NCBI GenBank assembly: GCA_036011785.1
Contig: DASCOB010000158.1
Coordinates: 1 to 53,592, forward strand
Length of the DNA: 53,592 bases
Direction: 5' to 3'
DNA from: Anaerolineales bacterium
GTDB lineage: Bacteria; Chloroflexota; Anaerolineae; Anaerolineales; UBA11657
The notes beneath the pieces were generated by a model that saw only the letters and a program-made list of their open reading frames with translations, was not told where the DNA came from and ran no database searches. Positions 3,008 through 46,314 of this stretch are shown here, piece after piece. A program made the translations under genes and the position numbers. Position 1 is the stretch's first letter. Every line of letters begins with the position of its first letter.

Positions 3008-3697
3008 ATGGCCGCCGTGAAAAAATCCCCCACCATTGCAATCATCGGTGGCACCGGTGCCGAGGGGTTGGGCCTGGGGTTCCGTTGGGCGCAGGCCGGG
3101 TATGCGGTCACGATTGGCTCGCGTACATTGGAGAAAGCACTTTCCAGAGTTGCCGAGTTAAACGTACGGCTTTCTGAGGGTAAGCCGGCGCTGCAGGGAA
3201 TGGAGAACCTAGCTGCGGTTCAGGCCTGCCAGCTTGCTGTTCTGACTGTCCCTTACCGCGTGCACGAAGCCACGCTCTCAGAGTTAAGAGATGCGCTGCA
3301 GGGAAAGATTCTGGTGGATGTGACCGTGCCGCTTGTGCCGCCGAGGGTTGACCGCGTGCAGCTGCCGGCGGGGCGCGCTGCCAGCCTAGAGGCGCAAACG
3401 CTGCTGGGAGCGGGCGTGAGGGTGGTCTCCGCCTTCCAGAACATCTCCGCCGAGCACCTGCGCGCGGCGGAGCGACAGATTGACTGCGATGTACTGGTAT
3501 GCGGCGATGACGTGGAAGCACGGGCCGAAATAATCCGATTGGTGCAGGTGGCCGGAATGTCGGGGTTGCATGCCGGGCCACTGGCGAATGCGGTGGCGAT
3601 TGAATCGCTCACGCCGGTGCTCATAAGCCTGAACAAGCATTACGGGGTGAAGGATGCGGGCATCCGCGTCACCGGTATTCCCCGAGCGGATGATTAA
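3008..3697 (+). CDS. npdG: NADPH-dependent F420 reductase (Fno/NpdG family)
   Basis: 229 aa. The N-terminal Rossmann motif IAIIGGTGAEGLGLGFRWAQAGYAVTIGSR and the overall length match NpdG. It sits in an F420 gene cluster. Confidence 0.7.
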   Translation: MAAVKKSPTIAIIGGTGAEGLGLGFRWAQAGYAVTIGSRTLEKALSRVAELNVRLSEGKPALQGMENLAAVQACQLAVLTVPYRVHEATLSELRDALQGKILVDVTVPLVPPRVDRVQLPAGRAASLEAQTLLGAGVRVVSAFQNISAEHLRAAERQIDCDVLVCGDDVEARAEIIRLVQVAGMSGLHAGPLANAVAIESLTPVLISLNKHYGVKDAGIRVTGIPRADD

Positions 3698-3750
3698 GAC
3701 CGTGTCTGGAGCTGGACCGACAGCGCCCAGCGTTTGACTGTATTCGGAGC

Positions 3751-4524
3751 ATGAGTGCACGCGCCCAAATTACGCTGACTGCGCTGGCGGACATCCCACT
3801 GGTGCAGCCGGGCGATAACCTCGTGGATATCATTCTGGATGCCCTGCGGCAGAGCGACATCCTGCTGCGGCCGGGCGATGTGCTGGTAATTGCCCAGAAA
3901 ATCGTCTCCAAAGCGGAAGACAGTTACGTGGATCTGGGCGAGATTAACCCCTCGCGCCGCGCGCGCGCCTTGGCGGCCAAGGTGGAGAAGGACCCGCGCC
4001 TTGTCGAAGTGATTCTCTCCGAATCGAGCGAGGTGGTGCGACACCGGCCGGGGGTACTGGTGGTGGCGCATCGGCTGGGATTTGTGCTTGCAAATGCGGG
4101 CGTGGACAGCTCCAACGCGGAGCAAGGTTCGGGCAGCGAGCGGGTGCTGCTACTCCCGCGTGACCCGGATGGCGTCTGCGCTGAGATTCGGGTGCAGTTG
4201 AAAAAGCGTGCTGGCGCTGACGTGGGTATCATCATTAATGACAGCCATGGCCGTGCCTGGCGCAACGGCACGGTGGGAGTGGCGCTGGGGGTCGCCGGGG
4301 TGCCAGCGCTGCTGGATTTGCGCGGCGCGCCCGACCTTTACGGCGAACGGCTAGAGGTCACTCAGGTCGGTCTTGCCGATGAGATTTCCGGGGCGGCATC
4401 GCTGCTGATGGGGCAGGGCGCTGATGGGCAGCCGGTTGTGCATATTCGGGGGCTGCCTTATCCTCTGCGCGCCGGCGCTGCTGCTGAATTGCTGCGCGCG
4501 AAGAGCGAGGATCTTTTTCGATGA
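3751..4524 (+). CDS. cofE: Coenzyme F420-0:L-glutamate ligase (CofE; FbiB N-domain equivalent)
   Basis: 257 aa. Contains PGDVLVIAQKIVSKAE..., ANAGVDSSN and IINDSHGRAWRNG, which are characteristic CofE motifs. Confidence 0.8.
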   Translation: MSARAQITLTALADIPLVQPGDNLVDIILDALRQSDILLRPGDVLVIAQKIVSKAEDSYVDLGEINPSRRARALAAKVEKDPRLVEVILSESSEVVRHRPGVLVVAHRLGFVLANAGVDSSNAEQGSGSERVLLLPRDPDGVCAEIRVQLKKRAGADVGIIINDSHGRAWRNGTVGVALGVAGVPALLDLRGAPDLYGERLEVTQVGLADEISGAASLLMGQGADGQPVVHIRGLPYPLRAGAAAELLRAKSEDLFR

Positions 4525-4536
4525 TCGGGAGGAAAT

Positions 4537-4935
4537 ATGACTACTGCGATACCTGAAAAATACATGGATCTGCTTTCGTGGGAGAAGAAGGCTTTCGCCC
4601 ACCTTGCCCTTGTCCTGAACGATGGCTCTCCACATGTCACGCCGGTCTGGTTCGACTATGACGGGGAACACGTGATTCTGAACAGCGCCGTCGGCAGGGT
4701 GAAGGACAAGGTTTTGCGACGCAGCGGGGTGGCAGCGCTGGCGATTTCTGACCCGGACAACCCGTACCGATACATGCAGATGCGCGGGCGGGTTGATGGA
4801 TTCAGTGAGAATGGCGCGCGCGAGATGATTGATCACCTTTCTCAGAAATACACTGGGAAACCGTACCAGTGGTATGAAGGTGAAACGCGCGTGACTTACA
4901 AAGTGCTGCCGAAACTCGTCTCAACGATGGGATGA
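4537..4935 (+). CDS. PPOX-class (pyridoxamine 5'-phosphate oxidase-like) probable F420-dependent enzyme
   Basis: 132 aa. The pattern LALVLNDGSPHVTPVWFDYDGEHVILNS...YMQMRGRV is that of the small split-barrel PPOX/FDOR family. It is embedded in the F420 cluster. Confidence 0.65.
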   Translation: MTTAIPEKYMDLLSWEKKAFAHLALVLNDGSPHVTPVWFDYDGEHVILNSAVGRVKDKVLRRSGVAALAISDPDNPYRYMQMRGRVDGFSENGAREMIDHLSQKYTGKPYQWYEGETRVTYKVLPKLVSTMG

Positions 4936-4936
4936 T

Positions 4937-5545
4937 GTGGACGTAACCGATTTGTTGCCGGTCATTCAACAGCGGCGTTCTGTTCGGCGCTACGCGACTG
5001 AGCCGGTCCAAAACGAGCTATTGGAAACCTTGCTGCAGGCCGCTGTGTGGGCGCCATCCGCGCACAATCGACAGCCTTGGCGCTTCGCGGTGTTGCAGTC
5101 AGACGCTCAAAAAGAGTGCCTTGCCGACGCGATGGGGGATAGATTCCGCGCCGATCGACTTGCGGCGGGCGACCCTCCAGAAGCCGTGGCACAAGACATG
5201 GAGCGCTCCAGGCAGGTCCTGACGCAGGCACCGGCGCTGCTGCTTTGCTGCATGTCTATGGCGGATATGGACAGGTATCCGGATGCGCGCCGCGCGCAGG
5301 CTGAACGGACGATGGCTATTCAGAGCGTCGCTCTTGCGGCGCAGAACCTCCTGCTCGTGGCGCACGCGGCCGGGCTTGGGGCGTGCTGGCGATGCGCACC
5401 TCTGTTCTGCCCGGACACGGTGCGCGAGACACTGCAGCTTCCGGCCGATTGGGAACCACAGGCAATTATCAGCATAGGTTATGCCGCTGAAGCGGGCAGG
5501 CCGCCCGAGCGCCGCCCACTGACCGAGGTGGTGCAATGGATTTAG
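4937..5545 (+). CDS. Nitroreductase-fold protein resembling the C-terminal (dehydro-F420-0 reductase) domain of FbiB
   Basis: 202 aa with a GTG start. Contains RRSVRRY...APSAHNRQPWRF, YPDARRAQAERTMAIQSVALAAQNLLLVAHAAGLGACW and LPADWEPQAIISIGYA. These closely parallel the FbiB C-domain sequence as I remember it. Confidence 0.7.
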   Translation: MDVTDLLPVIQQRRSVRRYATEPVQNELLETLLQAAVWAPSAHNRQPWRFAVLQSDAQKECLADAMGDRFRADRLAAGDPPEAVAQDMERSRQVLTQAPALLLCCMSMADMDRYPDARRAQAERTMAIQSVALAAQNLLLVAHAAGLGACWRCAPLFCPDTVRETLQLPADWEPQAIISIGYAAEAGRPPERRPLTEVVQWI

Positions 5546-6504
5546 GTTCGGTGGTCGCGCTGGCGGGCGGGGTCGGCGGCGCCAAGATGGCGCAAGGTCT
5601 CGCTGCAGCGCTTGGCCCCGGACGGCTGACCGTGGTTGTTAATACCGCCGATGACTTCGAACACCTAAGCTTGCACATTTCACCAGACCTCGACACTGTC
5701 ATGTACACCCTGGCCGGCTTGCAGAATGCGGAAACCGGATGGGGGTTGGCCGACGAGAGTTGGCATTTTCTGGAGGCGTTGGAGCGATTGGGTGGAGAAA
5801 CTTGGTTTCGGTTGGGAGACCGCGATTTGGGCACGCATGTGGAGCGCACCCGCCGTCAGCGGGCGGGAGAAAAATTGAGCAGCATCACTGAGGGTTTCTG
5901 CACGCGTCTGGGTGTGGCGGCGCGGGTGCTGCCGATGAGCGATGACCCGGTGCGCACCGTAGTGCACACGGATGCCGGCCCCATTCCATTTCAGGAGTAT
6001 TTCGCGCTCCGAAAATGTCGGCCTGCGGTACGTGGGTTTGAATTCGAGGGCGCCGACGCGGCGGAGTTCCATCCGTCGGCGGCGGCCGCGCTGCAGGCGG
6101 GTGACTTGAGTGCAGTGCTGATCTGCCCCTCCAACCCGTACGTTAGTATTGCGCCCATTCTGGCACTGACCGGTGCGCGAGAATATCTGCGCACTACCGC
6201 GGCGCCGGTGATCGCAATCTCGCCAATTGTTGGCGGCGCGGCGCTGAAAGGACCGGCGGCAAAGATGATGCGCGAACTCGGCGAGAATGTATCCGCGGAA
6301 ACTGTGGCTGTGCAGTATGCCGACTTGCTGGATGGATTCGTGCTTGACCGGTGCGATGCCGCCGAGGCTGAGGCCATCCGGGCGCGTGGGATGCGCGTGC
6401 TGCTGGCCGACACCGTGATGCGCACGAGTGCCGACGAGGCGCGCCTGGCCGCTGAAATCTTGGCCTTCGCCGGGGAATTTGCCCGCGCGCGGGTGCGTGT
6501 TTGA
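5536..6504 (+). CDS. cofD: 2-phospho-L-lactate (or EPPG) transferase CofD/FbiA
   Basis: 322 aa. Contains VVALAGGVGGAKMAQGL, DLDTVMYTLAG, WFRLGDRDLGTH and ICPSNPYVSIAPIL, the canonical CofD motifs. Confidence 0.85.
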   Translation: MDLGSVVALAGGVGGAKMAQGLAAALGPGRLTVVVNTADDFEHLSLHISPDLDTVMYTLAGLQNAETGWGLADESWHFLEALERLGGETWFRLGDRDLGTHVERTRRQRAGEKLSSITEGFCTRLGVAARVLPMSDDPVRTVVHTDAGPIPFQEYFALRKCRPAVRGFEFEGADAAEFHPSAAAALQAGDLSAVLICPSNPYVSIAPILALTGAREYLRTTAAPVIAISPIVGGAALKGPAAKMMRELGENVSAETVAVQYADLLDGFVLDRCDAAEAEAIRARGMRVLLADTVMRTSADEARLAAEILAFAGEFARARVRV

Positions 6505-7124
6505 TGGCCACATGGGCGGTTGTTCCCGTGAAACATCTCAAGGCGGGAAAGAGCCGGCTGGCCACTGTGCTCTCGCCGCAAGCGCGTGAGGGGTTCAGTA
6601 GAGATATGCTCAGGCGCACCGTGGGCCTGCTGGCACGCTCCAGCGTCATCGAGCGCACACTGGTGATTAGCCGCGATGCAAGCGCATTGCGGCTGGCACG
6701 CGAACAGGGTGCATTTACTGTCAGCGAACCCAGCGCCTCCGAACTGAACGGCGCGCTGCAGAAAGCGACTCAGGTGGCGGCTTCGCTCGGGGCAACGGGC
6801 GTGCTGGTGTTGCCCAGTGACCTCCCGCTGTTGGGTGAAAACGACGTGGAGGCGCTGGCCGGAGTAAACGGCGCAGAGCGCATCGTTGTGCTTGCCCCGG
6901 ATCGCCACGGCACCGGCACGAACGCGCTATTCGTGCGGCCACCGGGTTTGTTGCGCTATCGGTTCGGGGCGGGCAGCCTGGCCGCCCACCGGCAGCAGGC
7001 GCTCAGTCAGGGCGCAGCGGTACGCGTCCACCGACTGCCCGGTGTGGAGTTTGATGTGGATGAGCCTGCGGACCTGCACAGATTGCAGTCGATGAAAGCG
7101 GAATTAGGAGACGCGGAGGGATAA
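6504..7124 (+). CDS. cofC: 2-phospho-L-lactate / PEP guanylyltransferase CofC/FbiD
   Basis: About 206 aa. [16 protein letters not shown] and VLPSDLPLL..., plus the size, are typical of CofC. The ATG at 6504 overlaps the cofD stop (TGATG). Confidence 0.8.
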
Positions 7125-7128
7125 AGCC

Positions 7129-8121
7129 ATGGAGCGAGTAGCGCTGTACCTGCAGGACGCCCATCCTTTGCAGGATGGCATCAATTACGCTCAGTATGCG
7201 GAGAAGAAAGGCTTCGAAGCCGTGTGGCAAGCGGAAAGCCGCCTGGTGCGCGATGCGATTGTGCCGATGGCCGCGTTTTCGGCCACCACCTCGCGCTTGA
7301 AAGTGGGTTCCGGGGTAATTAACAACTGGACGCGCAACATCGGCCTGTTGGCTTCTACATTCCTGACTCTGGATGACCTTGCGCCAGACCGGATCATTTG
7401 TGGGATTGGCGCCTGGTGGGATCCGCTGGCGGCAAACGTGGGCATCCGACGCCGAAAACCGCTTCAGGCTATGCGTGAGACCGTGCAGTTGCTGCGTCGG
7501 CTGCTCGCTCTGGAAAACGTGACTTTTTCCGGAGAGTTCCATCAGGTGCGTGGCATTGAATTGGATGTGGTGCACGGACGGCGCGAGCCGCGTAATGTAC
7601 CCATTTACATCGGCGCGACTGGGCCCAAGATGATGGAGTTGACCGGCGAAATCGCAGATGGCGCGGTATTGAACTATTGTGTGCCGCCTGAATATAATGA
7701 TCGGGCGCTAGAGCGGTTGGCGGCTGGCGCAAAGCGCGTCGGTCGTTCTCTGGATGAGATTGATCGCCCGCAATTAATCGTTTGTTCCGTCCACGGAGAC
7801 CGCGCCGAGGCGATTCGGGGCGCGAAATGGTTGTTGACGCAATACCTGGCGCAGCAACCGCATATTGCCGAGGCCTCTGGGGTGAGCGCTGAAATTGTCC
7901 AGAAAGTACAGACGATCATCGGATGGCCGGCCACCAAAGAGCAGGTGGAAGAGGCGATGCAATTTGTGCCCGATGATTTTGTGCTGCGCATTAGCGCCAC
8001 CGGCACTCCGGAAGAAGCGCGCGCCCGCGTGCAGCAATACATTGAACGTGGGTGCACCTGCCCGATACTCTACCCGCTGGGCGACCCCTATCTGATGATG
8101 GACACCTTCGCGGTCAAATAG
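7129..8121 (+). CDS. LLM-class (luciferase-like) F420-dependent oxidoreductase
   Basis: 330 aa. Contains [28 protein letters not shown] and [24 protein letters not shown], matching the luciferase-like monooxygenase / Mer-like pattern. RBS GGAGGG. Confidence 0.75.
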
Positions 8122-8242
8122 CGCGCTGGCGCCCCGGAGTTTATTCCAATACCCCCCCCAACCCGCTGCCGACCTTAAGGCTGCAGCGCAGCATCAAGGT
8201 CGGCGCGCTGGCGAGCTACCGAGAGCTGCACGTGGATGCGCG
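7988..8242 (+). repeat. Direct repeat copy A (3' end of the LLM gene, the spacer, and the 3' end of convergent kbl)
   Basis: Aligns by eye with 10643-10899. In the 43 shared LLM codons there are 9 nt differences, 5 synonymous and 4 replacements. The spacer and kbl part has a few small indels. Confidence 0.85.
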
Positions 8243-8330
8243 CCTGTCCCTTGGGCACCACCGGGTAGGAGAATCTGACCATATCCATGCCAAGTTCCAG
8301 TAGGTGGTCAGACATTCGCTGCCCACAGGG
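8175..8330 (-). pseudogene. kbl: Remnant of the 3' part of kbl (2-amino-3-ketobutyrate CoA ligase / glycine C-acetyltransferase), tail frameshifted
   Basis: The C-terminal half of ORF 8175..8438 reads ...RMSDHLLELGMDMVRFSYPVVPKGQARIHVQLSVARQRADLDAALQP. The PVVPKGQARIR.Q.SAAH block is the conserved Kbl/BioF-family C-terminus. There is no N-terminal 300+ aa, and the tail is cut short relative to copy B. Confidence 0.6.
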
Positions 8331-8531
8331 TTTATCTTCTAGCGGATAATTTCGATAATTGTTGAATTGAGCGGCAAACTCACAAATTGTTTCACGAAAC
8401 TTCGCTACTTCCTTGAAAGGTCGGCACATTTCACACATGAATTACTATCAATATGATCTATGAATGTGATTGTAGATTCGACACAAGCGTGAAAATGTTA
8501 TATTAAATCGCATTATTAAAAGCAGCAATCA

Positions 8532-8559
8532 TTGTCACTTTTGTCACGTGCGATATAAT
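8532..8559 (+). promoter_or_regulatory. Sigma70-like promoter for the radical SAM gene
   Basis: TTGTCA (8532-8537), 16 nt spacer, TATAAT (8554-8559). This places the transcription start downstream of the first ATG (8558) and favours the GTG at 8588, which follows GGAGAA. Confidence 0.4.
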
Positions 8560-8587
8560 GCAGATAAGGCCATCGGAGAAATTGGTT

Positions 8588-10261
8588 GTGAAAGTACTTT
8601 TTATTTATACAGATATTGGTATCTCCGTCGGCTACTCTTGTGGTGTTGGGGCCTTGTCTGCCTACTTGAGGAAGAAGGGTCATGACACCAAACTACTGCA
8701 TGTTTCTGATGAATTAAACTATGGACTGGATGTTGAAAAAATAGTCGCAGACGTGGAAGAATATGATCCTGGACTCATCTGTTTTTCCGCGGTCACTAAC
8801 CAATGGTTCTACGTAAAAATAATCGCTAAGTTGATCCGACGCAATTGTAATATTCCTATAGTTGTTGGTGGTCACCATGCCAATGCAGCCCCAGCTGAAA
8901 TAATTGAAGAGGAAGCGGTGGATTTTGTGTGTAAGGGAGAAGGAGAGAGGCCCCTGCTTGAACTGGTTGAGAAGCTAGAAGCCGGTGAGAATGTCCATCA
9001 TGTTCCAAACATGCTGGTAAAAAAAAGAGGTTATTGCAACGACACGATTGAGATGAAAGCAGAAAGTGTAACGGTTGAGCCTGTTGGAGTAACTGACACT
9101 TCAAGTTCTGATGGCTCATCCGGCGAATCTATCAAAGACACCACGACTTACCAACTTAGTGACGGAACAGAGATTGTCGATAATCCGGTAGGTCGATGGG
9201 TGGATGATCTCGACTCCTTGCCTTTTGAAGACCGTGACATCTTCAACTACAGGGAAATTGTAGATTCTCGACACGGTTGGGCTGAAGTCATCGCTACCAG
9301 AGGCTGCCCTTATACGTGCGCCTACTGTTTTAACATTCCGTTCTTTGATATGTACAAGGAAGACCTACGAAACACTGGTGATGCCGTAAAAATGAAGGAC
9401 TTCATCCGTAGAAGGGGTGTTGAGTCTACCATTGCTATGCTAAAAGAAATCATAGAGGAGTATCCTAACGTAAAATACTTCACCTTTGTCGATGACGTTT
9501 TTGCAATATACACCCCGTGGCTTGCCGAGTTAGCCCCCGTTTATAAAAAAGAAATCGGATTGCCATTTGCTGCCACCTCGCAACCGCTGGCATTTAATGA
9601 AAGAATCGCTAGAATATTGCAGGAAATGGGCTGCAAAGTTGTGAAAATGGGCGTTGAAGCTGGTAATCCAGACCTTAGAAATCAGGTGCTAAACAGAGGT
9701 ATTCCTGATCGGGTGTTAATTGACGCGTTCAACATTGCACGCAAATATAACCTCAAGCCGCAGGCCTTCAACATGATCGGTCTACCTAGAGAAACCAACG
9801 ACAATATGATGGAAACAGTTAGGTTAAATGCTAAGTTGCGGGCTTATATTGTCTGGGTGTCCACGTTTATGCCATACCCTGGTACAAATCTATACACCTA
9901 TTGCCGAGACCAAGGACTAATGGATGAGACCAAATGGGATGGCGTGAAAAGCTATCGAGGCGGTTCTGTTCTAAACGAAACTAGTTTCTCCCGCCTAGAT
10001 CTCGAGAAAATGCGAGTGATGTTTCGCTGGCACCTTAATGTCGCATTGCAAAATGGTTGCTCTGAAACTTATGCGGCGGCTATCGCGGAACTTGATAGCC
10101 TCAGTGAAAAAGTTTGGATGTCTGGAGAAGCAGAAGAGCTTTGGCTTGAAAGAGAACCAATGCTGGACAAACAGTTCCGTGAAGTGCAGATCGACCATTA
10201 CGTTGGTAAGAAATATGTCAACATGTTGTGGGCTGAAGAATACAATTATGATCTTACTTGA
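8588..10261 (+). CDS. B12-binding-domain (class B) radical SAM enzyme of unknown specificity
   Basis: ORF 8558..10261. N-terminal Rossmann-like B12 domain: VLFIYTD...GALSAYLRKKGH, IVVGGHHANAAP and CKGEGE. Radical SAM cluster motif RGCPYTCAYCFN (CxxxCxxC, nt about 9305-9328). An S/T/D/G-rich stretch lies at about nt 9029-9193. Start is GTG 8588 (RBS GGAGAA) or ATG 8558. Confidence 0.8.
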   Translation: MKVLFIYTDIGISVGYSCGVGALSAYLRKKGHDTKLLHVSDELNYGLDVEKIVADVEEYDPGLICFSAVTNQWFYVKIIAKLIRRNCNIPIVVGGHHANAAPAEIIEEEAVDFVCKGEGERPLLELVEKLEAGENVHHVPNMLVKKRGYCNDTIEMKAESVTVEPVGVTDTSSSDGSSGESIKDTTTYQLSDGTEIVDNPVGRWVDDLDSLPFEDRDIFNYREIVDSRHGWAEVIATRGCPYTCAYCFNIPFFDMYKEDLRNTGDAVKMKDFIRRRGVESTIAMLKEIIEEYPNVKYFTFVDDVFAIYTPWLAELAPVYKKEIGLPFAATSQPLAFNERIARILQEMGCKVVKMGVEAGNPDLRNQVLNRGIPDRVLIDAFNIARKYNLKPQAFNMIGLPRETNDNMMETVRLNAKLRAYIVWVSTFMPYPGTNLYTYCRDQGLMDETKWDGVKSYRGGSVLNETSFSRLDLEKMRVMFRWHLNVALQNGCSETYAAAIAELDSLSEKVWMSGEAEELWLEREPMLDKQFREVQIDHYVGKKYVNMLWAEEYNYDLT

Positions 10262-10351
10262 TTATGCTTTACCCCCACACAATGATGTTAGTAGGTTTGG
10301 CCTCCCGACGAATTGACAAGGCAGCAAATTCACTCACTAAGGTAATAGGAT

Positions 10352-10609
10352 ATGCCAAATTGCGGTAACGGACATGTCATGAACGAGAGTTCCAGAAGCC
10401 GTACTATAGAGAGGGTTGAGGAAGTCGTCTATACTAAGCAAAAAATAAAGCATTTCGATCGCAATGGCTCAGAATTCTGGCAAGAGACCAATGTTCCAGA
10501 CCTAGTTGAGAAGGAGGTCAAGCTCGACAGCGTGGTATATGTGTGCGCTATCTGTGGCGAGACACAAACGGTCACGGAAGAGCTGACCGAGCCGTCCAAC
10601 GTACCTTAG
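10352..10609 (+). CDS. Small hypothetical protein (85 aa) with a putative Cys/His metal knuckle
   Basis: Low-GC codon usage matches the neighbouring rSAM gene. It has N-terminal NCGNGH and C-terminal CAICGE (CxxC). The RBS is weak (AAGG/AGGA) and I recognise no family. Confidence 0.45.
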   Translation: MPNCGNGHVMNESSRSRTIERVEEVVYTKQKIKHFDRNGSEFWQETNVPDLVEKEVKLDSVVYVCAICGETQTVTEELTEPSNVP

Positions 10610-10642
10610 TTGTTTCTTTTCTCCGCGGCCAAGGTAATTGAA

Positions 10643-10899
10643 GCATTAGTGCTACCGGCACTCCGGAAGAAGCGCCCGCCCGCGTGCAGCAGTACATTGA
10701 ACGTGGGTGCACCTGCCCGATGCTCTACCCGCTGGGTGAACCCTATCTGATGATGGATACCTTCGCGGTCAACTAGCGCGCTGCCGCCCCGGCGTTTATT
10801 CCAACACCCCCAACTCGCTGCCGACCTGTTTAAAGGCTGCCAGCGCGGCGTCCAGGTCGGCGCGCTGGTGAGCTGCCGAGAGCTGCACGCGGATGCGCA
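10643..10899 (+). repeat. Direct repeat copy B
   Basis: See copy A. Offset is 2655 nt through the LLM-derived part. Confidence 0.85.
10645..10776 (+). pseudogene. Remnant of the last 43 codons of an LLM-class oxidoreductase gene
   Basis: Translates to [43 protein letters not shown]. The intact gene has [43 protein letters not shown]. An in-frame TGA lies immediately upstream at 10639-10641. Confidence 0.8.
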
Positions 10900-10990
10900 C
10901 ATCGTTAGGGCGCAGTTCCAGCAGCGGGATTTCTTGCAGCTGCAGGCCCGCACCGGGTTCAGGTTTCATAAGCGCTCGTAAGGTCTGCAT
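10796..10990 (-). pseudogene. In-frame fusion of a tdh 5' remnant (about 31 codons) to a kbl 3' remnant (about 33 codons)
   Basis: The 64-aa ORF reads MQTLRALMKPEPGAGLQLQEIPLLELRPNDV|RIRVQLSAAHQRADLDAALAAFKQVGSELGVLE. The first part is the classic N-terminus of L-threonine 3-dehydrogenase. The second part is the Kbl C-terminus. Confidence 0.65.
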
Positions 10991-11007
10991 ATATCCCTAC
11001 CGGTTAG

Positions 11008-44445: not shown

Positions 44446-46314
44446 ATGAAAAGCGAATTTACACTGGCTTTCAACGAAATCGCGGAACGCAGCCACCTCG
44501 ACCGCGAGACCATAGTCGAGGCTTTGGAGTTAGCGTTGGTGCAAGCGTACCGAAAGTCGGTCACCGCATCGGAGGCGCAGGAGATTTTGGCTCGGGTGGA
44601 CCCCGAAACCGGTCAGGTGTCCGTATTTGCTGAGAAAGAAGTGGTGGATGAGCCGCAGGATGACCGCACCGAGGTCGGTCTTCACGTGGCACGTGAGGTG
44701 GCGTCAGAGGCACAGTTGGGAGATCTGTTGACGGTGGATTCAACCCCGACCGGTTTCGGCCGCATCGCCGCGCAAACCGCCAAGCAGGTCATCTTGCAAA
44801 AACTCAAGGAAGCGGAGCGCGAGAGCCAGTATCTGGAATTTGTCGAACGCGAGGGAGACATCATACACGGCACGGTGCAGAGTTACGGCGCGCAGGGGGT
44901 CACCCTTTCGCTTGGGCGTGCCGAGGCGCAAATGCCGCGTAACCAGCAGATGCCCGGTGAGCGCTATCGCACCCATGAAAAGGTGCGTTTCTATGTGCTG
45001 GAGGTGCGAAAAACCTCGCGCGGTCCGCAGATAATCGTCTCGCGTACGCACCGTAATCTGTTGCGGCGTTTGCTGGAGATGGAAGTTCCGGAGATTTACA
45101 ACGGGGTAGTGGAAATCAAATCGATTGCGCGCGAGGCTGGCTACCGTTCCAAGGTGGCGGTGGCAGCGATGCAACAGGGCGTGGATCCGGTCGGCGCGTG
45201 CGTCGGCATGCGCGGTATGCGTATTCAGTCCATCGTGAAAGAATTGCACGGCGAGAAAATCGATGTGATTCAATGGAACCCGGATGTGGCCACATTTATT
45301 TCCAAGGCGCTCAGCCCGGCGCGGGTGGCTAGTGTGCATTTGGAAGACGCCTCCGTGGAGGGGCGCACGGCCACGGTCATCGTGCCCGACGACCAGCTCT
45401 CGCTCGCAATAGGGCGCGAGGGCCAGAACGCCCGCCTTGCAGCCAAGTTGACCGGCTGGCGCATCGATATCAAGAGCATGGCCGAGGCCGCGCGTGAGGC
45501 AGTGGAGCTGCTGCAGGATGATGAGCGTTATGCAGACCTTGCGCCACCGTTGCAGGCCGAAATGGAGCGAGCCGGAATCACGCTGACGAAAATGGCCGAA
45601 AACAGGCCGGTGATGCCGGAGGAATACACCACGCTGAACACGCTTGTGGATGTTGTCGAGCAGCGCCGCCTTGAAATGCAGGCCACCGAGCTTGCTGAAA
45701 GAAGAGCGACGCTGGAAGCGGTGCGGGCCAGCATCCCCGTGGCGGCTTACGCGTGTTCGTTGCGGGATGCCGAAGTGCTTACCGAGGGGCTGCGGACCAC
45801 CCTTGAGGAAGCCGATTACCAGAGCGTTGGTCAGGTTATGGAAGAACTTGCCATGGACCCCGACGCGATTCTGGCACTGCATGGCGTTGGCCCGAAAGTG
45901 TTGGAAAAGTTGTTGGGCACACTCACTGAATTGGCGGCCGTCTTGCCCGAACCTGCACCTGAGCCCGAACCGGAAACGGAAGCTGAAACGGTGGCTGTGG
46001 AAGAGGCGGCTGATGCTGAGGTGTCAGCGGCCGAGCTCAGTGCTGAAACCGAACTCGCAGGGGAGATAGAGGAGCCGGCGGAGGCCGAAGCGGGAATCGC
46101 CGAAGAACCTGCTGTTCGGCCGGTGGACGCGCCCGTTCCGGAAGATTGGCAGGAAGAGGAGCCGGACATTGACCAGCTGTTGAATTCGAAGCAGAAAAAG
46201 CAAAAGCGGCGTAAGAAGCGTACCGTTGTCTTTGATGATGAGCGCGGCGTGTTTGTTACCTCGCACGCGCACAAGCGCGATGCCGACCAGTTTGAATGGG
46301 ACGAGGAGTTATAG
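44446..46314 (+). CDS. nusA: Transcription termination/antitermination factor NusA with a long acidic then basic C-terminal extension
   Basis: 622 aa. N-terminal domain, S1 ([10 protein letters not shown]), KH1/KH2 ([56 protein letters not shown]), HhH-like region, then an [13 protein letters not shown]... tail and [11 protein letters not shown]. Confidence 0.9.

Follow-up and report, generated by a model that had tools for sequence, protein, structure and literature searches.

A class-B radical SAM enzyme and its zinc-ribbon partner as the probable front half of an imported glycan-tailoring operon in marine Anaerolineales

Class-B radical S-adenosylmethionine (SAM) enzymes carry out hard reactions on unactivated carbons, and function is unassigned for most of their subfamilies. 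Among the described enzymes, AprD4 functions without B12 and is assisted by a reductase, AprD3, and HpnJ remodels the sugar moiety of a hopanoid. In O-antigen and exopolysaccharide (EPS) clusters, nucleoside diphosphate furanoses (NDP-furanoses) are made by a nucleotidyltransferase, a dehydratase, a reductase and a mutase of the UDP-galactopyranose mutase (UGM) type, as for dTDP-fucofuranose (Fcf1/Fcf2) in E. coli O52; we know of no described pathway of this kind with a class-B radical SAM enzyme, a Rieske ferredoxin or the small protein reported here. Here we analysed the entire 53,592-nt contig (hereafter the window) of a metagenome-assembled genome (MAG) of a marine Anaerolineales bacterium, in which an islet of ~2.3 kb (~8323-10642) holds a class-B radical SAM gene followed by a gene for an 85-aa zinc-ribbon protein. 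We propose that the islet was recently imported into this host and comprises the promoter-proximal half of a glycan-tailoring operon with four genes, which is the best explanation of the data as a whole and one that we regard as probable.

The first gene of the islet encodes a protein with the domain layout of class-B enzymes. Pfam searches placed a B12-binding domain (PF02310) at aa 26-136 (68.2 bits; cutoff 32.1) and a radical SAM domain (PF04055) at aa 245-423 (69.2 bits; cutoff 29.5), residues being numbered for the domains in the 567-aa form of the protein. The open reading frame (ORF) contains RGCPYTCAYCFN as well as VDDLDSLPFEDRD, and its CxxxCxxC motif corresponds to C250, C254 and C257 (nt 9305-9328; codons 9305-9307, 9317-9319 and 9326-9328), which were invariant in 37 aligned family sequences. 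Three additional cysteines outside this motif (C125, C359 and C449 in the window protein) were also invariant in the 37 family members. The reading frame is open from an ATG at 8558 (ORF 8558-10261, 567 aa). The start is likely GTG 8588, giving a 557-aa product, because the Met of every homologue falls at this codon in the alignment, because a Shine-Dalgarno sequence (GGAGA, 8574-8578) lies 9 nt upstream of it, and because the ATG overlaps the -10 box of the promoter. The NCBI record likewise uses the 557-aa form; public gene calls in general differ, at 557, 559 or 567 aa. The original prediction, made from the DNA letters alone, had recognised the N-terminal B12-type domain and the CxxxCxxC core, and these are confirmed by the two Pfam matches and the invariant cysteines. 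It had also pointed to an unusual S/T/D/G-rich stretch, which is real: the homologue alignment shows it to be a hypervariable insertion that separates the two domains, is missing from one subclade and reaches great length in some members (e.g. P0051), and the variable linker (aa 160-191, nt 9035-9130) is predicted to be disordered, with a predicted local distance difference test score (pLDDT) below 50.

Comparison with curated families indicated that this enzyme stands apart, in keeping with the original prediction, which could not place it in a characterised subfamily. No curated NCBIfam subfamily cutoff was reached: the top model was HpnJ (TIGR03471) with 101.8 against 577.6 bits, and BchE (TIGR02026) scored 76.1 against 481 and AprD4 (NF033070) 53.2 against 500. 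Its homologues formed ~110 clusters at 44-71% identity with the next level at ~31%; the family is sharply bounded. Members belong to Krumholzibacteriia, Gamma-, Alpha- and Betaproteobacteria, Planctomycetota, Nitrospirota and Desulfobacterota; in the scans run, MAGs and metagenome contigs were the sole sources. The loci of the species-representative genome scan included no cultured or annotated carrier, and the search for plasmid-borne or cultured annotated relatives returned only radical SAM proteins of 27-28% identity on Solidesulfovibrio plasmids. In an AlphaFold2 (AF2) model (pLDDT 87.8, predicted template modelling score 0.86) the closest structures by Foldseek were AprD4, TsrM, MgmA, OxsB, TokK and CysS, with E values of 1e-16 to 1e-20; these neighbours share only 13-17% identity with the protein, and the template modelling (TM) score is about 0.5-0.6 for the class-B enzymes. 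The enzyme is of class-B type and belongs to an uncharacterised, strongly conserved new subfamily. Two other assignments were rejected: a defence system, since all PADLOC matches were sub-threshold (E 1e-4 or weaker), and a phage origin or auxiliary phage gene, since there was no PHROG match and no family member on IMG/VR viral contigs.

The second gene begins 90 nt downstream and encodes a protein with MPNCGNGH at the N-terminus and CAICGE near the C-terminus. A single-sequence search recovered only the window's own protein and one relative with 67% identity, located directly after the radical SAM C-terminus in its locus (L011). There, an upstream in-frame ATG restores MPSCSNGH; since this matches MPNCGNGH in the window, the start that gives 85 aa is correct, and public calls of 76 aa are truncated and lack the conserved N-terminal Cys/His knuckle. 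The ORF of the original prediction, with its NCGNGH and CAICGE motifs, was thus properly delimited. A profile search of the protein database gathered a family of 78 clusters without a Pfam domain, and an exhaustive hidden Markov model (HMM) search over 1.84 billion representatives gave 13 at E up to 1e-10, all of 66-96 aa, with no distant relative or fusion among the representatives searched. In the alignment E23, Y27, I32, K33, F35, R37, G39, E41, P49 and C65 are invariant and C4, R15, V25, E53 and C68 are at least 90% conserved. The putative metal ligands are C4, H8, C65 and C68, of which H8, counted as the fourth, is a Cys in some versions; in the Planctomycetota proteins CPxC replaces C-x3-H. 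AF2 (pLDDT 88) predicted strands at residues 9-35, 41-65 and 71-78, the two strands of ~25 residues forming a long hairpin to which the third is added, and the predicted strand boundaries put both knuckles at the hairpin base. As modelled, the protein would be a folded zinc ribbon whose two knuckles are placed for one metal ion. A fold-based function was sought and rejected, as the Foldseek matches were limited to the long hairpins found in pore-forming toxins, all with E above 0.1.

Genomic context ties the two genes to each other and to polysaccharide synthesis. By tblastn and a profile HMM on six-frame translations of the loci, the small ORF was found directly downstream of the radical SAM gene in every locus of the radical SAM subclade with at least 59% identity and nowhere outside that subclade. 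Seen from the other side, the radical SAM gene lies directly upstream of the small ORF in 24/24 loci outside the window's population, and 33 small-protein clusters have a longest contig of the same size as that of a radical SAM cluster (all within P0002-P0070). The small-protein family is confined to this gene context. The small ORF is a real gene and a dedicated, conserved partner of one radical SAM clade; the dedicated small partner foreseen in the original prediction therefore has both conserved homologues and synteny, in several phyla.

In relatives, the pair does not end the unit. A Rieske [2Fe-2S] ferredoxin gene (~125 aa) lies directly downstream of the small ORF in 22 of the 23 loci that reach far enough, beginning 45-285 nt past it, and in most loci a flavoprotein of ~440 aa that matches UGMs (E 1e-37) follows. 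Clustering of the neighbours in 19 loci, with names taken from NCBIfam, revealed a recurring set of genes for an initiating polyprenyl-phosphate sugar transferase, a Wzz-like chain-length protein, glycosyltransferases of family GT2, RmlD-like and GalE-like enzymes, an RmlA-like nucleotidyltransferase, and Wzy-like, Wzx and Wza proteins, the Wza type including pepcterm_export. Such neighbours were seen in MAG loci from the taxa listed above for the family, and precomputed Pfam tables gave the same context for the two closest relatives (70-71% identity). One cluster type is common to distant phyla (L012-L029, L039, L040 and L047-L057) and always accompanies the radical SAM gene, with the UGM-like gene in most cases; it has a Bac_transf initiating transferase, Wzz-like and GT2 proteins, an RmlD-like protein with a C-terminal extension, a GalE-like enzyme, an NTP-transferase, Wzy, Wzx and Wza, and a TolB-like beta-propeller protein, and sometimes adds PEP-CTERM proteins or a sulfotransferase. 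Radical SAM gene, small protein, Rieske ferredoxin and UGM-like flavoenzyme form a four-gene unit inside Wzx/Wzy polysaccharide clusters. The original prediction had treated the pair as a candidate self-contained cassette, a view that this comparison does not support: relatives carry it as the opening half of the unit.

A sister subclade of the enzyme (46-58% identity, ~512 aa; Nitrospirota, Desulfobacterota and some Planctomycetota) is informative about the small protein. Its loci contain neither the small ORF nor the Rieske gene, its enzymes retain the conserved family residues, and the polysaccharide context is kept, with the mutase-like gene in most loci. The gain and loss of the small protein thus track the Rieske ferredoxin, and the sister enzymes work without either; no other argument speaks more strongly against a role of the small protein as substrate. 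We infer that it is an adaptor. The opposite possibility, that the small protein is methylated or otherwise modified by the enzyme in the manner of a ribosomally synthesised and post-translationally modified peptide (RiPP) or another protein substrate, has in its favour the strict adjacency of the small ORF to a class-B enzyme and the fact that some class-B enzymes (e.g. ApyD, rSAM_ocin_1 and MgmA) modify peptides or proteins. However, the maturase models scored far under their cutoffs (ApyD, NF050148, 57.6 against 750 bits; rSAM_ocin_1, TIGR03975, 34.7 against 282), there is no layout of conserved leader and variable core, the central region and the metal ligands are conserved with a predicted fold, and no protease, transporter or immunity gene accompanied the pair in any locus examined, the neighbours being polysaccharide genes instead. 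Together with the sister-subclade loci, these results make a RiPP-like reading very improbable. Of the three roles that the original prediction had offered for the small protein, the Zn-ribbon adaptor fits best and the RiPP-like precursor is not supported.

We propose the following mechanism for the module in its home setting. SAM would be reductively cleaved at the [4Fe-4S] cluster of the CxxxCxxC motif, leading to radical modification of a sugar unit, be it an NDP-sugar or a repeat unit linked to a lipid. Cobalamin may be bound by the N-terminal Rossmann domain. The reaction would most likely be a C-methylation, with an AprD4- or HpnJ-like rearrangement or dehydration as the alternative. As an accessory or adaptor subunit, the small protein would dock on the radical SAM enzyme and link it to the Rieske ferredoxin. 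That the substrate is a sugar we infer from the polysaccharide context combined with AprD4 as the top structural match.

The window itself holds only the first two genes of the module, because only 33 nt of foreign DNA follow the small ORF, and the right breakpoint corresponds to the intergenic region between the small ORF and the Rieske gene of relatives. The islet is therefore a truncated member of the four-gene module. Neither gene shows signs of decay: the radical SAM protein deviates from its family at 5 of 173 conserved columns, namely the start-codon column and four conservative changes, and the small protein at 0 of 15. To judge from the sequence, both genes are intact and their transcription is probable, but at this locus the pair is separated from its usual partners.

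The islet stands out from the host by composition. Its GC content is 44% against 60% for the host window, the radical SAM gene having 44% and the small ORF 48% (the upstream region is given in Table 1), and the profile dips to 45-51% over 8001-11000, against ~60% for the genome otherwise. In relatives the GC content of the cassette follows that of the host, which is not so in the window. By these values the islet is foreign, probably a recent import from a donor of lower GC. A promoter-like TTGTCA-16-TATAAT with 11 of 12 consensus matches (8532-8559) was found by promoter scan; as the AT-rich background yields nine promoter-like sites in this region against 4.2 expected in shuffles, the promoter match alone is weak evidence. 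There was no Rfam match in the AT-rich leader at E up to 1, either to a riboswitch or to another RNA, and we conclude that it contains no riboswitch. The two ORFs and the near-consensus promoter reported in the original prediction are present in the sequence.

Comparison with an islet-free allele from the same population (L043, 1-5762) defined what the islet displaced. The order in this allele is LLM, kbl (384 aa), tdh (349 aa), methyltransferase; homology of the window to it runs to 8322 and resumes at 10885. Both alleles coexist in metagenome sample ERZ27286502, the islet allele as L007. The islet allele replaces kbl-tdh, which encode glycine C-acetyltransferase and threonine dehydrogenase, and as both genes are lost, islet carriers probably lack this threonine-degradation route. 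On either side of the foreign DNA lie direct repeats of ~255 nt (families D1-D3), 90-95% identical between copies. The left copy lies within a block 96.9% identical to the islet-free allele. The right copy consists of an LLM 3' fragment (10643-10776), a terminator-like hairpin (10782-10794) and a kbl 3' fragment. The LLM fragments of the two copies (10643-10776 and 7988-8121) have nine differences, eight of which fall at third codon positions; the right copy therefore accumulated them while part of a functional gene of a related lineage and did not decay in place. The kbl::tdh junction (window 10885-10900) falls at a shared 14-nt sequence, GCACGCGGATGCGC, which occurs in the 3' part of kbl and in the 5' part of tdh (about 1600-1630 and 3650-3670 of the islet-free allele); this microhomology points to a microhomology-mediated deletion. 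A transposon-type insertion was rejected, as there was no transposase or integrase ORF and no terminal inverted repeat, the flanks being a 255-nt divergent duplication of host type. No tRNA that could mark an integration site was found in the window.

Two of the ORFs at the edges of the islet are by-products of this rearrangement. The 87-aa ORF on the left is chimeric: by BLASTP against the intact Kbl of the islet-free allele, its residues 57-87 match the C-terminus of the host Kbl exactly, residues 33-56 are diverged kbl-like sequence and residues 1-32 are foreign low-GC sequence, and the NCBIfam glycine C-acetyltransferase model covers only residues 33-86. On the right, the 64-aa remnant has NCBIfam matches to both Kbl and Tdh, the latter also by BLASTP against Tdh of the islet-free allele. 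The coordinates of these and the other features are collected in Table 1.

Table 1. Features of the islet and its borders (positions in the window; L043 is the islet-free allele)
Feature	Position	Strand	Remarks
Left copy of direct repeat	7988-8241		3' end of LLM/F420 oxidoreductase gene, terminator region, 3' end of kbl
Chimeric 87-aa ORF, not a real gene	8175-8438	-	Publicly annotated as a gene
AT-rich foreign upstream region	8323-8587	+	36% GC; homology to islet-free allele stops at 8322
Class-B (B12-binding-domain) radical SAM gene	8588-10261	+	557 aa from GTG 8588; HJO34014.1
Intergenic spacer, radical SAM gene to small ORF	10262-10351	+	90 nt; zero SNPs across population contigs
85-aa zinc-ribbon/long beta-hairpin protein (predicted fold)	10352-10609	+	90 nt downstream of radical SAM gene
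Final 33 nt of foreign DNA	10610-10642		Repeat begins at 10643
Right divergent repeat copy	10643-10898		88.8% identical to L043
kbl::tdh deletion remnant, 64-aa ORF	10796-10990	-	Tdh N-terminus fused to Kbl C-terminus

The host gene that ends in the left repeat, the LLM/F420 oxidoreductase gene (7129-8121), is the last of an F420 block directly preceding the islet (window 3008-8121). Read from Pfam matches on an identical population contig, this block comprises F420_oxidored, F420_ligase (CofE), a PNPOx-like protein, a nitroreductase-family protein, CofD, CofC and the F420-dependent LLM oxidoreductase. Milder GC dips were seen elsewhere in the window, of 0.52 at 44-45 kb, immediately upstream of nusA (44446-46314) or overlapping it, and of 0.55-0.56 at 26-27 and 29-30 kb.

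How the islet behaves in the population bears on whether it does anything in its present host. Across ten population contigs (L001-L010), from independent samples and assemblers, it has 0-1 single-nucleotide polymorphisms (SNPs) per 2381 nt. The flanks diverge by up to 8.0% on the left (L007) and 7.3% on the right (L010), and by 3-4% in L003 and L006. The common near-invariant tract spans ~8234-10800 with edges that vary between contigs, the left edge of L007 lying at ~8234 and the right edge of L010 at ~10800. A near-invariant islet between flanks that are 3-8% divergent indicates recent spread by recombination across diverged strains, and a tract of this kind would be the signature of a gene-specific sweep or an introgression.

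One way to read this pattern is that the islet is inert cargo, a foreign operon fragment that was fixed by hitch-hiking or recombination, is non-functional and is due to decay. The usual operon partners are absent, the rearrangement is untidy, with a duplicated flank, the kbl::tdh deletion and a chimeric ORF, and 0-1 SNPs mean that there has been too little time for selection to become visible. On the other hand, the same allele recurs in many independent samples and assemblies (TARA, JGI, ENA and NCBI records) and in diverged backgrounds, the breakpoints spared both genes and the promoter, and two intact metabolic genes, kbl and tdh, were displaced, a cost for a neutral insert. We consider inert cargo quite unlikely.

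At the other extreme, the radical SAM and zinc-ribbon pair might be self-sufficient in this organism, drawing its reductants and its substrate (for example a surface glycan) from the host, with the resulting trait under selection and so responsible for the spread. The foreign segment consists of exactly two complete genes with a promoter and a Shine-Dalgarno site, the family-conserved residues are retained, and the invariant tract, which essentially equals the islet, resembles a gene-specific sweep; one relative (L052) likewise has the pair without a Rieske gene. Yet near-zero diversity fits a very recent neutral spread equally well, and DNA this young is expected to be intact. Moreover, the Rieske gene adjoins the pair in nearly all assessable relatives and the UGM-like gene is found in most loci, whereas the 53.6-kb window contains no glycan genes akin to the usual neighbours of the family. 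We judge self-sufficiency unlikely. A bolder form of it, which we hold to be just as doubtful, is that the pair is the minimal catalytic unit of an undescribed class-B glycan-tailoring system, active alone on a host substrate and selected through diverged strains, for example by a change of the surface glycan under phage pressure; in its more radical variant, the small protein is the target of the radical SAM enzyme. With regard to activity in the host, the sweep-like pattern and the clean breakpoints speak for it, while the missing partners and the youth of the insert mean that intactness proves nothing.

Several observations weigh against our preferred explanation, that of an imported front half of a glycan-tailoring operon. 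A tblastn search of the window with all neighbour proteins found no Rieske, UGM-like, transferase or export gene, its only other match being a weak, partial GalE-like one (37% over 72 aa at about 33.8 kb); with the partners absent from the window, the home function may not apply in this host. Rieske ferredoxins are not very low-potential, and the Rieske protein may serve the flavoenzyme rather than the radical SAM enzyme. The L052 locus shows that the pair can stand without a Rieske gene nearby, though it still lies in a polysaccharide cluster. Because AprD4, the closest structure, does not use B12, cobalamin binding by the radical SAM enzyme cannot be assumed. Foldseek and PDB sequence searches gave the small protein no informative relative, and full-text literature searches found no description of the radical SAM family or the module, the family having no characterised member.

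The wider interest is twofold. One conserved radical SAM subfamily known from MAGs is now tied to polysaccharide synthesis with a defined partner set, and the former orphan enzyme now belongs to a module of four genes that can be tested and may produce an unusual modification of a sugar. In addition, the window records a natural experiment, in which a two-gene half-module replaced kbl and tdh and spread nearly unchanged in a marine Chloroflexota population. If active, the half-module is a minimal unit; if inactive, it shows cleanly what an operon fragment looks like soon after its arrival.

Set beside known systems, the radical SAM enzyme shares with TsrM, TokK, CysS, OxsB and MgmA the layout of an N-terminal B12-type Rossmann domain and a radical SAM barrel with CxxxCxxC, and these proteins are among its PDB profile matches. 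In contrast to them, its family has its own conserved C-terminal helical domain with a ...DHYVGKKYxNxxWAxEYxYDLS tail, and its context is polysaccharide synthesis rather than antibiotic, cofactor or MCR modification. AprD4 (apramycin 1,2-diol dehydratase, PDB 6fd2) is both the best structural match (E 3.5e-20, TMt 0.73) and the best PDB sequence match, and it acts on a carbohydrate, in line with the substrate class proposed here; it differs in having 16% identity and in belonging to an aminoglycoside cluster rather than a polysaccharide cluster. HpnJ and BchE have the class-B architecture in common with the enzyme and are the best-scoring NCBIfam models, yet they are far under cutoff, and no hopanoid (hpn) or bacteriochlorophyll genes were present in any neighbourhood examined. 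Like other small zinc-ribbon proteins, the partner has two knuckles, C-x3-H (or C-x2-C) near the N-terminus and C-x2-C near the C-terminus; here, however, the predicted knuckles clamp a beta-hairpin with strands of ~25 residues, a form for which Pfam, PDB sequence and Foldseek searches returned no relative. Finally, none of the sugar genes of the NDP-furanose pathways is in the window, whereas the clusters of relatives likewise combine an NTP-transferase with GalE/dehydratase-like, RmlD-like and UGM-like enzymes, and do so beside the radical SAM gene. What is new here is the set of partners that accompanies a class-B radical SAM enzyme with a probable role in tailoring.

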